Positions 13,616 to 59,704 of a stretch of 61,212 bases of DNA are shown here, one piece after another (position 1 is the stretch's first letter; each line of letters starts with the position of its first letter). The position numbers were made by a program, and so were the translations under genes. The notes beneath the pieces are model-generated. The model ran no database searches and was not told the DNA's origin. It was given only the letters and a program-made list of their open reading frames with translations. Origin of the DNA: an uncultured Gammaproteobacteria bacterium (GTDB lineage: Bacteria; Patescibacteriota; Patescibacteriia; 2-12-FULL-57-11); assembly GCA_964648865.1 (NCBI GenBank), contig CAZYLV010000006.1:1-61212 (forward strand), read 5' to 3'.

Positions 13616-14044
13616 TTAATGCTGATTCGACGCTATTGTACGGTGAAAAAGCATCAAGCGCGCAAGTCCGGCGACGATCAGGCCGTCGGCGAGGTTCACG
13701 AGCGACCACGGCCCGAGTCGGACGTAGTCGAAAGTCACGCCGAAGGTCAGGCGATCGATGGCGTTGGACAGCCCGCCAGCGGCCACGAGCGCGGCAGGCA
13801 GACTGTCGCGGCGGGCGGCATAGGCACCGAAGCCCAGGGCAAGCAACAGGCTGCCGAGCGTCAACACGATGCCGGGCACCGGGATGCCGAAGGCGACGCC
13901 GGGGTTCTGGTAGGGCTCCAAGGCCAGGAGGCCTGGAACGAGAGACACCCCCTGCGGCGGCAGGAGGTGTCGGCTGGCCCATTTGCATCCCTGGTCGGCC
14001 AGCAGCGCAGCCGCGGGCAGGAGCCAGAGGAGCGCGCGGCGCAT
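13616..14044 (-). CDS. lspA: Lipoprotein signal peptidase (signal peptidase II)
   Basis: DQ..K, NPGVAFG, GGLSNAIDR and NLAD motifs. Confidence 0.88.
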   Translation of the reverse strand: MRRALLWLLPAAALLADQGCKWASRHLLPPQGVSLVPGLLALEPYQNPGVAFGIPVPGIVLTLGSLLLALGFGAYAARRDSLPAALVAAGGLSNAIDRLTFGVTFDYVRLGPWSLVNLADGLIVAGLARLMLFHRTIASNQH

Positions 14045-14046
14045 GC

Positions 14047-14418
14047 TCAGGCCTCCTGGGTCAGGCGCTTCTTGCACTCGACGCAGGCCGAGGAGGTCGG
14101 GCGCGCCAGGAGGCGCTTCGCGTCGATGTCCTTGCCGCAGTATTTGCAGACGCCGTAGGTGCCCTTCTCGATGCGCTCCAGTGTCTTGTTCACGTCGCGC
14201 AGCGCCGACTCCAGGGTACGCTCCAGTGTCAGGTTCGTGGAGTAGGTCTCGACCTCGGCGGCGTTCTCGTCCTCCTTGTCGCCGATCTGCGGGAATTCGG
14301 CGTCGTAATCCTGCGCGTTGTGCGGGTTGCGGTGAGCGAAGGCCGCCAGCTGCCCTTCGAGCTGGGTCTTCTCGGCCTGCAGCTTCTCCTTGATTTGGGC
14401 GAGAGTGGTCTTATCCAT
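14047..14418 (-). CDS. dksA: TraR/DksA C4-type zinc-finger protein
   Basis: GDKEDENA.E, ALRDVNKTLERIEKGTYGVCKYC and RL.ARP...CVEC. Start at ATG 14418. Confidence 0.88.
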   Translation of the reverse strand: MDKTTLAQIKEKLQAEKTQLEGQLAAFAHRNPHNAQDYDAEFPQIGDKEDENAAEVETYSTNLTLERTLESALRDVNKTLERIEKGTYGVCKYCGKDIDAKRLLARPTSSACVECKKRLTQEA

Positions 14419-14480
14419 AGCGGTGACCGAAAAAGGCCAGAAAAGCGCTGCGGTTTGGAAAACTGTAGCAGGTCGATAGC

Positions 14481-14542
14481 AAAAAAAGAAGAGGCGCAAG
14501 CTGCAGGCCATGCATGTGTATGTATGTGCCTCGCTGCGCCTC
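14481..14542 (-). terminator. Intrinsic terminator (long hairpin plus U-tract on minus strand)
   Basis: GAGGCGCA (14491-14498) pairs with TGCGCCTC (14535-14542). On the minus strand the hairpin is followed by TTCTTTTTTT. Confidence 0.7.
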
Positions 14543-14855
14543 GCGGCGCCGCGCCGGGGATTACTCCCCGGGGGAAGCGGTCCTCTGCGGAGAACCGATT
14601 TCCTTGGGGAGTAACGCCACAAGCTGTGCGGTGCCAGGTCCATCTCCTCAACCGCTCTAGGGCTGTTCGACCTCTCGGGCCAGGCGAAACCCTGGACCCA
14701 TGATGAGAGGAAGCCACACTGCTTTTCCTTTTGTTTTTGTGTCAAAGGAAGGGAGAGCAGTAGAGGAGAGAGAAATACGCCCCTCCGGATGAGGAACATC
14801 TCTCTGTTGGACACGCGGGATGTGGAAGGAGCGACGGTACCTTGTTTAGGGTACG
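14481..14855 (-). ncRNA. Putative ~370-nt structured non-coding RNA of unknown family
   Basis: Bounded by a near-consensus promoter and a terminator. Contains at least three further long stems (14561-14614, 14671-14710, 14767-14805) and no credible ORF. Confidence 0.5.
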
Positions 14856-14860
14856 TACAC

Positions 14861-14889
14861 ATCGTACCAAAAAAGTGTTCACCTGTCAA
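14861..14889 (-). promoter_or_regulatory. Near-consensus sigma70 promoter
   Basis: TTGACA (14884-14889), 17-nt spacer, TG-g-TACGAT (14861-14866). Confidence 0.75.
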
Positions 14890-14962
14890 TCGTGCTTTGT
14901 TGAGCAGATTATCAGCGATATCCCCAACTGGTTGAGTCGATTCGCTCGGTTGGAGTCTGGAC

Positions 14963-15003
14963 TGTGTATAACTCTGTGGATGACGGCTCCAATCTGGGGA
15001 TAA
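14963..15003 (-). promoter_or_regulatory. Cluster of three DnaA-box-like 9-mers
   Basis: TTATACACA (14963-14971, consensus), TCATCCACA (14975-14983) and TTATCCCCA (14995-15003), all in the same orientation. Confidence 0.55.
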
Positions 15004-15018
15004 GTGCTGGAAAAGGTG

Positions 15019-15864
15019 TCACTTCCGTGGGGAATTGCAGAAGTTCTCAAGGAAAATAGGCACTTCATCGAGCGTCACGGATGCGGACCTGGTGGGGAGC
15101 AGTGCCGGAATGGTGAGAGGGAGGCTACGGACCAGCGACCATCGGGGAGGGAGTTTGGCGGGAAGAATGATCGGAAATCCCTCGAGGCAGGCGCTTCGGG
15201 AGGCCGGTACTGTCCCCTGGTTCACGACATCCTGAGGGGAAAAGCTCAGGAAAGCGAAGCTGCTCTCGTCGGATCGGAAAGCCACGTCTTGCTCGGCGAT
15301 CGGCAGCACGAGCCAGTCCGTGCCTGCGACGCGCTCCAGGCGTGCCGCCACGGCCGCCGGATCTTCGATAAGCTCCTCCGTCGCGCTCTTGTCGGGGAGA
15401 TGCAGCGTCCGGCCGACAGGGGCGGTCCGGGCCAATGCCGTCAGGACGGCTCCGCGCGGCCCCGGAGTCGGAAGCTCGAGAAGGAAGCGTGCCGCGCCGG
15501 TTGTCGTGGTCGGGAACAGGGTCAGCATCGCCGTCCCTTCGCCGACCAGCGCCGTTGCCAGGTCAGGATTGGTCTCGGTAAAGCGCAGCAGGGCCTGGGA
15601 TTCCTGAGGAAACTGTCGGGCCAGGGCTACGCTCGCTGTCGCGAGCGGCCGCTCGGCGGGGACGGCAAGGGTCAGGAGCGCCCCGGTGGGGAGGGGACCG
15701 GAAAGCGCGGGGATAGGCGAGTATCGGATGCCGATGGCGATGCCGATGCCGAGGACCAGTGACGCCACAGCCAGGACCGCGGAAAAGCGGCGTGGCTCAT
15801 CGGAAAATGGGAATTGGGCCCAAAAACGGCGCATGGCAGGCGTAGTGTACGGCCCGTCGAGCAA
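15019..15864 (-). CDS. Hypothetical membrane-anchored protein
   Basis: 281-aa ORF with an N-terminal TM (VLAVASLVLGIGIAIGI); start uncertain. Confidence 0.55.
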   Translation of the reverse strand: MLDGPYTTPAMRRFWAQFPFSDEPRRFSAVLAVASLVLGIGIAIGIRYSPIPALSGPLPTGALLTLAVPAERPLATASVALARQFPQESQALLRFTETNPDLATALVGEGTAMLTLFPTTTTGAARFLLELPTPGPRGAVLTALARTAPVGRTLHLPDKSATEELIEDPAAVAARLERVAGTDWLVLPIAEQDVAFRSDESSFAFLSFSPQDVVNQGTVPASRSACLEGFPIILPAKLPPRWSLVRSLPLTIPALLPTRSASVTLDEVPIFLENFCNSPRK

Positions 15865-24496: not shown

Positions 24497-25030
24497 ATGG
24501 GATTCTTGATTGTCGGCACTGCAATCGTGCTCGCGCTCGTATCCTTGGCCTACGAGGCCTGGAACAGACCAGACCGCGTCTTGGCGCGGCGGATTGAGGA
24601 GTGTGCCCGGCGCATCCGCTCGTCCGCCCAGGAGATCGCTGATGCGAAGGCCAAGCTCCCGCATCTGGTGAGCGAGGCCCACCTCGCCCAGATGCGTGAG
24701 CGAGGAGCGACGCACGTGGGCCTGCATGGCAAACGCCTGGTCGTCATCGAGGCCCGCAGCGAGGCCGACTTCCGTGTGATGCGTGACATGCAGGTGAAGG
24801 CCATCGAGGGAGAAATCCGCTTCCACGAATGGCGGCTCGATGAGGCCGCAGCGGAGTGGCGGGAGTTGGTGCGGCGCCACCATGCCCAACAGCGGCTGCT
24901 CCAGGAGATCGAAGGACGGAAGGCGACGATGCCCTACCGCTCGGCGGCGCCTCGCCTCACGGCCGTACCGGAGATTACCGCGGTGAACGCCCTACTCAAG
25001 CGGTTGGGGTACGAAGTGCCGGACGCGTGA
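24497..25030 (+). CDS. Hypothetical protein, N-terminal TM plus coiled coil
   Basis: GAGGAGGAG SD upstream and a 178-aa ORF. Confidence 0.6.
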   Translation: MGFLIVGTAIVLALVSLAYEAWNRPDRVLARRIEECARRIRSSAQEIADAKAKLPHLVSEAHLAQMRERGATHVGLHGKRLVVIEARSEADFRVMRDMQVKAIEGEIRFHEWRLDEAAAEWRELVRRHHAQQRLLQEIEGRKATMPYRSAAPRLTAVPEITAVNALLKRLGYEVPDA

Positions 25031-55589: not shown

Positions 55590-57122
55590 AACAGGAAATG
55601 TCAAATTTTTCGGCGGCGGCGAACTGGCTGGCTCGTCCCGCCGCCCCTCGGGGCGAGCCAGAAATTCAGCGACAAAATCGTACGGCGACACAAAATCCCA
55701 GTCCGCACATTTGCCCGCAATGCGGCGGTTCGTTCCAATTTTTCTCACCAATTGCGAAATCTCCATGAGAGATTTCGCCGAGGCGATTTTTCCCGCTTGA
55801 ATCAAGGTATTTACGAAGTCCCGCGTTGGTTCGATCCAGCCGCTCATCCGCTTTTGTCCAAGAGTCATTTTCTCACCTTTCAGGGTGATTTTTTGTTCCA
55901 CCAGTTCTTCTTTTTTGCGCTTGTAGGTATCTTCGTCAATAAAGCCGTCAAGATAACCCTCAAGCAGTTTGTCCAGCTTTTCCTGCACCACAGTCATTTT
56001 CTGATTTACCTCTTGGACAAAAGCGTCCGCTGATTGGGCCTGCTTCTTTTCTTCATCTTCCAAATATACCAACATTTCGCTCGCCCAATCAGCGGGCAAA
56101 GCAATTGTTTGCGCTTTCTCTACCATCTGCCGCGCAAGCTCTTGTTCTTGGATGTAGGGTGCGGCGCAATGGCCTTGCTTTCTGGTACAGCGGTAGTATC
56201 TATACAGTCCGCCATTTCCTCGCGCAAACTGCGCCGTGAACATTGCGCCGCAAGTGCAGTGAAACAGTCCGCAAAAAGGAAAATCATGCTTTTGTCTGCT
56301 CTTGCGCGGTTTGCCTCGTTCTTTCAACACTTCCTGCGCCCGCGCAAATAATTGCTTTGAGATGAGCGGCTGGTATTTGCCTTCAAACGGCTCGTCTTTC
56401 CAGCGCATAATGCCGATGTAGAGTTCATTGGTGAGGATGTGATACATGGCAGAATTGGAACGCGGTTTCCCTGTTTCGCTTTTCACGCCAAACTCGGCGA
56501 GGCGATGGGCAATGCTGGTAAGCCCATGATTGCCAGTCGCAAACTCCTCAAAAACCTTCTGCACTGCTTTGGCTTCTTTTGGTTCTGGCACAATATTCCG
56601 CAGTCGGTGGTCATATACATAGCCCAGCGGTTTTTGTCCGGGCCATTCGCCTCGCCGCAGTTTGGCGCGATTCCCTCGCCGAACATTTTCGGACAGATTG
56701 TCCACGTAATATTTCGCGTTAGAGAGAGCAATGGATAAAAAGAACTTGCCTGATGGCGTATTCTCAAATGCGAAGGTAGGAAATTTTAGACCTGCCAATT
56801 TCCCAGTATCCAGTAGGTAAATGATCCTTCCGCCATCAACTGAATTTCTGGACAATCTGTCCGGGTTCCACGCCAGAATACCAATTTGATGAGGAAGACC
56901 GCCCTCAATTTTATCGAGCAGGGCGTTAAACACTTCTCGCCCTGGGACTTTGGCAGTTTGCTTTTCAATGAAGGTATCGATCACCTCAAGTCCCTCGCGT
57001 TCGGCAAACTCTTTTGCCTCATGCAGTTGCGCTTCCAAACTTAACACTTGGCGGTCTTCCTCATCCGTGCTTTTGCGGATGTAGAGAAAGTATTTTGTAG
57101 GTTGTGGTATTGGATTATTCAT
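55536..57122 (-). CDS. Large serine recombinase (resolvase, recombinase, zinc ribbon and coiled-coil domains)
   Basis: YIRKST.EED.Q..SL..Q, PDRLSRN, LSENVRRG...K..RGEW.G..PLGY, YIG, CTCG and YYRCT motifs. The ORF ends antisense inside tRNA-Leu. Confidence 0.95.
   Translation of the reverse strand: MNNPIPQPTKYFLYIRKSTDEEDRQVLSLEAQLHEAKEFAEREGLEVIDTFIEKQTAKVPGREVFNALLDKIEGGLPHQIGILAWNPDRLSRNSVDGGRIIYLLDTGKLAGLKFPTFAFENTPSGKFFLSIALSNAKYYVDNLSENVRRGNRAKLRRGEWPGQKPLGYVYDHRLRNIVPEPKEAKAVQKVFEEFATGNHGLTSIAHRLAEFGVKSETGKPRSNSAMYHILTNELYIGIMRWKDEPFEGKYQPLISKQLFARAQEVLKERGKPRKSRQKHDFPFCGLFHCTCGAMFTAQFARGNGGLYRYYRCTRKQGHCAAPYIQEQELARQMVEKAQTIALPADWASEMLVYLEDEEKKQAQSADAFVQEVNQKMTVVQEKLDKLLEGYLDGFIDEDTYKRKKEELVEQKITLKGEKMTLGQKRMSGWIEPTRDFVNTLIQAGKIASAKSLMEISQLVRKIGTNRRIAGKCADWDFVSPYDFVAEFLARPEGRRDEPASSPPPKNLTFPVWWARRESNPHELAPASS
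55584..55732 (+). repeat. Inverted repeat A, copy 1 (149 bp)
   Basis: Reverse complement of 57249-57397; identical by eye. Confidence 0.92.
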
Positions 57123-57248
57123 AAATTTTGGCGTGGAATAATGATTAATGTTCGGCGAGGGGGAAAAAATCGCCTCGATTCCGCCGAAGGCGGAATAATT
57201 GGTGAGAAAAATTGGAATGAGCTTTGCTCATCAATCGCTTCGCGATTG

Positions 57249-57397
57249 CGAACCGCCGCATTGCGGGCAAATGTGCGGACTGGGATTTTGTGTCGCCGTA
57301 CGATTTTGTCGCTGAATTTCTGGCTCGCCCCGAGGGGCGGCGGGACGAGCCAGCCAGTTCGCCGCCGCCGAAAAATTTGACATTTCCTGTTTGGTGG
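57249..57397 (-). repeat. Inverted repeat A, copy 2 (149 bp)
   Basis: Reverse complement of 55584-55732. Degenerate homology continues left to about 57160. Confidence 0.92.
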
Positions 57398-57405
57398 CCG
57401 ATAAT
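57377..57405 (+). promoter_or_regulatory. Junction promoter spanning the internal att-like core
   Basis: TTGACA (57377-57382, from arm A), 17 nt containing TGGTGG, then GATAAT (57400-57405, from arm B). Confidence 0.6.
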
Positions 57406-57604
57406 ACAATCAGCGCGAACCGAATTTGGAGAGCGGGCGAGCAAAATATGACTGCAAAAATTTTGTTAAAAATTTTTGCAACACACTCGCCGCGCGGATG
57501 CGGGGGCGGGCGGCGCATTCCCTCCCCTTGAACCCCTTCCTGCGCCGCCCGAAAAAATCCGCGCGGCGAGAGGAGTGTTTGCCCCGACGAATTGGGGCGG
57601 GCGC
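57392..57604 (+). repeat. Inverted repeat B, copy 1 (213 bp)
   Basis: Reverse complement of 59252-59464; overlaps repeat A copy 2 by TGGTGG. Confidence 0.92.
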
Positions 57605-57614
57605 GCCACCGATT

Positions 57615-57638
57615 GAACGATCCGAATCGTTCTTTTTT
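57615..57638 (+). terminator. Intrinsic terminator after arm B
   Basis: GAACGAT-ccga-ATCGTTC followed by TTTTTT. Confidence 0.65.
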
Positions 57639-57817
57639 GTTTTTCCCGCGCCTTGCCCCAGCCCGCCCGTGCGCGGCGCGGGTTTATGGAACTCCCTTTG
57701 ATTTTGGCGGGTTGCTATTGACATACGCTAGGAATTTTGCTTAAATAATGAGTCCAACCTGGGTTAGGTTTGGATGAGTTTTCGGCTCTTTACCAACTGA
57801 ACAAGAAGGAGGAAACG

Positions 57818-58306
57818 ATGACCCTGACAGCGAAAGACATTCACGATCAGCTCCACCAACTGCTCGGCTTCCAGCCGGGTGTCATCGTGGACTGCACGCG
57901 TGTCGGCAACCAGCCTGTGATGGACTTCGTCGGATCATCCAGGAGCACCTTCAACAACCCTGGTGCTTACATCATGCTCGCCGACAAACTGGCCGGTCTC
58001 ATGGTGCACCTCTCGGAAGTCGTTCCCAGCGAACAGAACAAGCTCGTCATGCTCTGCGATCTTTTCGCGGAAGGCAACGAGCCCCAGCCAGGCGTCGAGT
58101 GGTCGCACGAGAACCGCGTCAAAGGAGCGATCCTCGGCGTGATGTCGTGCCTGCTCATGCTCTTCCGGCACCCGGCACTTCAACTCGTCTTCGCCGCCCA
58201 GCCGGAAAGCCTCGTCATTGCCACCATCGAGAACGGCAAGATCGTGGTGCAGAAGAAGCAGGGCGAGAAGATGGTGAAGTTCCTGCAGGACAACGAGAAG
58301 AAATAA
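57818..58306 (+). CDS. Hypothetical cargo protein (162 aa)
   Basis: AAGGAGG SD before ATG 57818; TTGACA at 57718 upstream; first gene of the two-gene cargo operon. Confidence 0.75.
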   Translation: MTLTAKDIHDQLHQLLGFQPGVIVDCTRVGNQPVMDFVGSSRSTFNNPGAYIMLADKLAGLMVHLSEVVPSEQNKLVMLCDLFAEGNEPQPGVEWSHENRVKGAILGVMSCLLMLFRHPALQLVFAAQPESLVIATIENGKIVVQKKQGEKMVKFLQDNEKK

Positions 58307-59499: not shown

Positions 59500-59704
59500 G
59501 GCCACGATGATTCCTGCGTCCGGCCCCTCCGCCGGCGCCCGCCGAGCCGAGCTCGGCCCGTTCTTTCCGTAATCAGCGGACGCTCTCCGAAAGGTCCTTT
59601 CGGAGACCCTCCATTGATTATTCGTGACGTCCGTCCGCACGGAGACGCCGGCCTGCGTATCGCCTGCGCCGTCCACGGTATCCGGGACGTCCCTATCCAC
59701 ACAC

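Follow-up and report, generated by a model that had tools for sequence, protein, structure and literature searches.

A candidate structured RNA gene upstream of a dksA-like gene

The analysed DNA, hereafter the window, is a stretch of 61,212 nucleotides from an uncultivated Patescibacteria (CPR) bacterium (assembly GCA_964648865.1, contig CAZYLV010000006.1, positions 1 to 61,212). The region of interest is a 600-nt ORF-free spacer of reduced GC content (about 50-58%, against about 69% around it), located between an upstream 281-aa ORF with no Pfam match (15022-15864, minus strand) and a downstream cluster formed by a DksA/TraR zinc-finger gene, lspA and a Liv-type binding protein, all on the minus strand. 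The first-pass annotation had proposed that this spacer encodes, on the minus strand, a stand-alone and novel structured RNA of about 370 nt with its own promoter, a series of long stems and a terminator, dksA having a separate extended -10 element; an attenuator controlling dksA-lspA-liv was its alternative. Every element listed there was found on the minus strand, and the observation is confirmed. The features of the locus are the following (all on the minus strand):

14963-15003: three DnaA-box-like 9-mers (TTATCCCCA, TCATCCACA, TTATACACA), 75-115 nt upstream of the -35 hexamer; conserved in L001, the closest related locus (see below).
14861-14889: sigma-70-type promoter, TTGACA (14889-14884), 17 nt, TG-n-TACGAT (14869-14861).
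14481-14856: the whole predicted RNA (~375 nt), from the TSS region to the end of the U-tract.
14837-14854: P1, the 5'-terminal hairpin GUACC-CUAAACAA-GGUAC; relatives have GUAG..CUAC or GUGAU..AUCAC hairpins at their 5' ends.
14826-14832: 5'-proximal motif GCUCCUU (family consensus GYUCHUU), aligned in all subgroups by MAFFT.
14767-14805: hairpin AGAGAGAUGUUCCUC-AUCCG-GAGGGGCGUAUUUCUCUCU (the AGAGAGA/UCUCUCU stem), identical in L001.
14752-14766: 5' strand (CUCCUCUACUGCUCU) of the long-range helix P3.
14719-14760: P2, helix CUGCU/AGCAG plus UUCCUUU/AAAGGAA, with the A-rich loop ACACAAAAACAAAAGG; the motif AACAAAAACAAAAG recurs in the related loci L001, L003, L006, L008, L018, L039, L043 and L044.
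14661-14715: P4, GGCU-U-CCUCUC [hairpin] GAGAGG-UCGAAC-AGCC, containing CCUCUC..CCAGG-GUUUCG-CCUGG..GAGAGG.
14641-14658: 3' strand of P3 (AGAGCGGUUGAGGAGAUG); GYGGU is shared with the family consensus AAGYGGUYGG.
14543-14640: 3' domain, a long irregular helix that includes UUACUCCCC/GGGGAGUAA (14614-14561) and an inner hairpin.
14481-14542: intrinsic terminator, long hairpin GAGGCGCAG...CUUGCGCCUC followed by UUCUUUUUUU; CUUGCGCC plus a U-tract is shared with L001, L002 and L018.
14462-14470: extended -10-like TGCTACAGT in front of dksA, the likely separate dksA promoter.
14047-14415: DksA/TraR C4 zinc-finger gene (122 aa; PF01258, E 2e-8), the downstream neighbour and not part of the RNA.

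A consensus scan of 1.5 kb returned this promoter as its only hit, against 0.2 expected, with 10 of 12 positions matched plus the extended TG. The 376 nt from the predicted start to the end of the U-tract folded at -160.5 kcal/mol, against -125.4 +/- 5.2 for dinucleotide shuffles (z -6.76, 0 of 100 shuffles as good), and the fold contained all the stems listed in the first-pass annotation. The opposite strand folded equally well; strand assignment therefore rests on the promoter, the terminator and the many conserved G-U pairs, which would be C-A mismatches on the other strand.

Comparison with Rfam had been named beforehand as a test of novelty. Rfam 15 returned only eight tRNAs in the window at gathering threshold, and nothing but four chance-level hits in 14300-15150 at E<10. 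Twenty related loci gave no gathering-level hit, and eleven loci searched at E<10 gave nothing in the RNA region. ARAGORN found no tmRNA, and literature searches found no description of such an RNA.

Related loci

The DksA-like protein was used to retrieve 48 loci (numbered with the prefix L), almost all from Magasanikbacteria-type Patescibacteria MAGs, and about 40 of them carry an RNA of 290-405 nt in the same slot and with the same layout. The closest, L001 (DksA 85% identical), keeps the whole spacer at 79% identity, including the DnaA-box-like 9-mers, the promoter, the body and the terminator. Ten of the 114 predicted pairs were changed on both sides; four compensatory pairs lie in P4 and six in the 3' domain. 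L018 was found by nhmmer with the window sequence alone (E 3e-5), whereas L002 was recognisable by shared motifs. A simple search with a 16-mer motif (TCTCTCTTCTTTACTG) was too specific.

Most loci have a 500-1100-nt ORF-free gap upstream of dksA. About 37 loci showed a near-consensus TTGACA-17-TGnTATAAT at -440 to -810 from dksA, followed by 290-405 nt, a terminator, and a second promoter (TTGACT-17-TATAAT) about 100 nt before dksA; this second promoter is present in almost all relatives. All-against-all BLAST joined 30 of these spacers into one cluster. In L013 a VIT1-family (PF01988) ORF (2389-2883) is inserted between the RNA terminator and dksA, and L016 also has an extra small ORF in that position. 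Arrays of inverted TACGAAT(T)-type repeats, which may be operator arrays, lie between the RNA terminator and the dksA promoter in L003 (2810-2900) and in L030 (about 290-130 nt upstream of dksA), where Rfam gave only chance-level CRISPR-DR and miRNA hits. An Uhrbacteria locus (L040, 2400-2800) has a look-alike RNA upstream of dksA, with CCUUCAAACUGC, an A-rich stretch, a GGGUAUCCC...GGGCACUACC helix and a terminator, suggesting that the family extends beyond Magasanikbacteria. The longest ORFs of the RNA regions differ in strand, frame and sequence, and the indels against L001 break every frame, so that no conserved ORF was found and the small-ORF hypothesis was rejected.

To measure how far sequence statistics connect the window to the main group of loci (group A), several models were built. 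Model R1 (window subgroup, central domain) found only its own seeds plus L039 (E 0.009). Model R2 (P4 block, 31 seeds without the window and L001) found all its seeds plus L013, which was not in the seed (E 7e-15), but gave the window only 7 bits (E 6). Model R3 and an nhmmer profile, both built from the main group alone, did not reach subgroups B, C or D, and thus did not detect the window, L001, L002, L018 or the L003/L006/L008 group. The cross-group links were weak: L039 with R1, L003 with the window-subgroup HMM (seed C, E 0.045) and L037 with the B+C HMM (E 0.0018). Statistical homology between the window RNA and the main group is therefore not claimed; membership in the same family is an inference from the identical slot, size, promoter/DnaA-box module, topology and short shared motifs (ACUGC/GYGGU, GYUCHUU), which we regard as very likely. 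A weak, non-significant covariance-model hit at 24933-25017 (plus strand; E about 1), driven by CUCAAGCGGUUGGGGUA, is probably due to chance.

Shared architecture and covariation

All subgroups share the same order of elements: a 5' hairpin (one or more) and the GYUCHUU motif; the long-range helix P3 (..YYCC-N-ACUGC with GYGGU-N-GGRR..), which closes a three-way junction with P2 (carrying A-rich single-stranded segments such as AACAAAAACAAAAG) and P4 (GGNN-N-CCYC ... GRGG-NNN-NNCC); a 3' domain, in most members with a GNRA or UUCG tetraloop hairpin; and a long terminator hairpin, whose loop is conserved in the main group (CCUUAAAA). The single-sequence MFE of the relative L026 (z -6.27) independently gave the same P3/P2/P4 junction, tetraloop hairpin and terminator.

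Covariation, the other test named in advance, was supported for P3, P2, P4 and the terminator. Cognate P3 strands paired at -13.8 kcal/mol and non-cognate strands at -8.6 over 33 sequences including the window, and none of 20,000 permutations was as good (p<5e-5). The corresponding values for P2 were -11.4 and -8.3 (p<5e-5). On a plain MAFFT alignment, the helix-bulge-helix design of P4 covaried in 31 relatives, with 96.4% of cells paired (about 45% when slid) and 23 double-change cells against 6.3 in shuffles (0 of 500 as high). P4, the tetraloop hairpin and the terminator together, in 21 sequences, gave 42 double-change cells against 14.4 (0 of 500). In the four-sequence subgroup of the window, L001, L002 and L018, 97.9% of cells in the P3/P4 structure paired, against about 50% when partners were slid. 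A pairing proposed by RNAalifold on the main group, between the AAGYGGUYGG strand (the P3 3' strand) and the segment just 5' of P4 (S2), was not supported in the cognate versus non-cognate comparison (p=0.098), and was rejected in favour of P3 and P2.

The upstream DnaA-box module

Across 38 loci, perfect DnaA boxes numbered 48 in the 13.2 kb upstream of the RNA promoters, against 5 in the remaining 215 kb, an enrichment of about 150-fold, although each locus has only 1-3 perfect boxes. In groups A and B, two copies of a 24-nt palindrome (TTTGTATACACTAGTSTATACAAA; written with its variable position as TTTGTATACACTAGT(C/G)TATACAAA) sit at about -123/-133 and about -250 from the RNA start; it is 96-98% identical between genomes whose DksA proteins are only about 60% identical, and its binding factor is unknown. 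There was no GC-skew or gene-strand switch at 14.9 kb in the window, and no dnaA or dnaN was found in the flanks examined; the position of oriC in the genome was not determined. A regulatory DnaA site is therefore more likely than oriC, although oriC is not excluded. The gene on the upstream side differs between related loci (metallophosphoesterase, AbiEii, methyltransferase, unknown), suggesting a synteny breakpoint. Elsewhere in the window, whose GC content is about 69%, GC drops to 0.51 at 56000-58000, and DnaA-box-like 9-mers lie nearby at 59693 and 60324.

Evidence of transcription

The existence of a transcript had also been set out as a condition of the proposal; expression is only partly shown, and there is no direct evidence of a discrete ~375-nt species, its ends or its abundance. 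Three runs labelled RNA-Seq that contain the window (X3, X5 and X11) showed flat coverage over genes and spacer alike and behave like DNA, giving no evidence of expression. They did reveal a co-occurring strain, which in run X5 (14040-14896) was the more abundant one (contig depth about 23-32, against 7.5), with 11 differences in dksA and, in the RNA, 5 substitutions and 1 deletion, all of which lie in loops or linkers or convert a U-G pair to C-G (the latter in the 3' domain). One metatranscriptome, from a study that also yielded DNA runs containing this stretch, had just two exact contigs on 20 kb, one of which (166 nt, 14607-14772) lies inside the RNA. In three independent freshwater and river metatranscriptomes, the only contigs matching 5 kb of L013 at 85% identity or more lie inside its RNA (2173-2378) and end near its 3' end. 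These data support transcription of the family, but contig depths were low (3-9) and carried no information on ends, strand or abundance, and the data do not settle in either direction whether a discrete ~375-nt species exists.

Interpretation

The data best fit an independent gene for a ~375-nt, highly structured non-coding RNA, the window's copy of a previously undescribed family found in Magasanikbacteria-type (class ABY1) Patescibacteria, an explanation held with moderate confidence. The interpretation given in the first-pass annotation, a stand-alone RNA rather than a leader, is thus supported. What the analysis itself established is the delimitation of the unit by a near-consensus sigma-70 promoter and an intrinsic terminator, its conservation in relatives with helices maintained by compensatory changes, the absence of a conserved ORF and the separate dksA promoter downstream; what we infer beyond this, without experimental or co-occurrence support, is that the RNA acts in trans as a compactly folded scaffold binding a protein partner, as other orphan large bacterial RNAs would, and not as a base-pairing sRNA or a leader, and that its transcription is tied to DnaA. 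Every family member's promoter sits 100-300 nt downstream of a conserved cluster of DnaA boxes, in most of them together with the two palindromes. The partner and the cellular role are unknown.

A cis-acting leader or attenuator, in which transcription from the strong upstream promoter is conditionally terminated at 14481 and read-through adds to the expression of dksA-lspA-liv, the structured body sensing a ligand or protein, seems unlikely but is not excluded. The RNA lies directly upstream of dksA on the same strand in nearly all loci, the tight linkage to dksA-lspA would also fit a cis role through terminator read-through, and in some relatives a segment (UCUCGCC) can pair, as read by eye, with either a 5' partner or the 5' strand of the terminator. 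Read-through itself was not measured. Against this reading stand the near-consensus dksA promoter between the terminator and the start codon in almost all relatives, the ORFs separating the RNA from dksA in L013 and L016, the long stem and 7-9 U tract of the terminator, the lack of covariation in the one alternative pairing examined, and the absence of any match to a riboswitch, T-box or leader family. A very divergent form or functional analogue of RNase P RNA, tmRNA, 6S or Ms1-type RNA polymerase-binding RNA, or SRP RNA is likewise doubtful. The size, the strong constitutive-looking promoter, the terminator and the clade-wide conservation are typical of such RNAs, and the neighbour DksA, as an RNA polymerase-binding factor, would suit a 6S-like role; canonical rnpB, ssrA, ssrS and ffs were not sought elsewhere in the genome, nor was the copy number of this RNA measured. 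However, none of these Rfam families matched at E<10 in the window or in 11 relatives, the 5' and 3' ends do not pair, leaving no acceptor-like stem or 6S rod, the 3' end is a terminator, and no P4-type pseudoknot motifs were seen.

An origin-associated element is also improbable. In this reading the DnaA-box, palindrome and AT-rich module would be the chromosomal origin or a DnaA-titrating locus, and the RNA an origin-proximal transcript that helps opening or priming, or that merely benefits from gene dosage. The box enrichment, the positionally fixed palindromes and the variable upstream genes agree with it, whereas the lack of a skew or strand switch, the absence of dnaA and dnaN in the flanks examined, the few perfect boxes per locus and the covarying multi-helix fold, which points to a function of the folded RNA itself, do not. 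The possibility of no function, with a GC-poor spacer whose stems arise by chance or a decaying gene, is strongly disfavoured: intergenic DNA in high-GC genomes often folds well, and the reverse strand folds equally well here, but the compensatory changes against L001, the covariation (p<5e-5) and the promoter, terminator and size conserved across genomes with 27-63% GC argue against it. A more far-reaching possibility, not excluded but unlikely on present evidence, is a class-wide (ABY1: Magasanikbacteria, Uhrbacteria and relatives) large RNA whose synthesis would be controlled by the replication initiator DnaA, and which would form a new ribonucleoprotein or a catalytic RNA linking chromosome-replication status to transcription or translation control, possibly together with the neighbouring DksA-like RNA polymerase-binding protein; that would make it a new housekeeping RNA class specific to ultra-small bacteria.

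Large, intricately folded bacterial RNAs are rare, and almost every class found so far (RNase P, tmRNA, 6S, OLE, ROOL, GOLLD, raiA) has revealed unusual biochemistry. We found no published description of an RNA class specific to the candidate phyla radiation, a huge, uncultivated and reduced-genome branch of bacteria. The candidate described here combines a consensus promoter, a covarying three-way-junction fold and a DnaA-box module that is more conserved than the neighbouring proteins, a combination that gives concrete, testable hypotheses (DnaA-dependent transcription and a protein partner) and a ready seed alignment for a new Rfam-type family.

Comparison with known RNAs

The raiA motif RNA, an orphan structured ncRNA of Firmicutes and Actinobacteria, is likewise a stand-alone RNA of several hundred nt with its own promoter and terminator, habitually found upstream of one conserved gene without being its leader, with a multi-helix covarying fold and unknown function; the present RNA has no sequence or structure match to it (Rfam E>10), occurs in a different clade (CPR) next to a different gene (dksA-like), and has a DnaA-box module upstream. 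OLE, ROOL, GOLLD and HEARO are unusually large, complex, covarying RNAs with long-range helices and tetraloops, each restricted to particular lineages and presumed to work as RNPs or assemblies, whereas this RNA is smaller (290-405 nt), matches none of those Rfam families, is not phage- or transposon-associated, and has no adjacent partner gene such as oapA/B/C or tnpB/iscB.

6S RNA (ssrS) and Ms1 are abundant housekeeping-type RNA genes with strong promoters, and the DksA-like neighbour offers a possible thematic link to RNA polymerase regulation, but the predicted fold here is multi-branched, without a rod with a central bubble or pairing of the 5' and 3' ends, is about twice the length of 6S and gets no Rfam 6S hit. 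As for tmRNA, which is defined by a tRNA-like domain formed by the 5' and 3' ends plus a tag reading frame, ARAGORN found none, Rfam gave no hit, and the 3' end here is a terminator. Bacterial RNase P RNA (rnpB) has a similar length, a junction-rich fold and GNRA tetraloops, but the present RNA lacks the P1 end-pairing and the universally conserved P4 sequences, and the Rfam RNase P models gave nothing at E<10. T-box and other 5' leaders, such as the ileS leader upstream of ylyA-lspA in Bacillus, share the position upstream of a dksA/ylyA-lspA-type cluster and the terminal terminator; here there is no T-box sequence and no Rfam hit, a separate promoter for the downstream gene follows the terminator, and in L013 the RNA is separated from dksA.
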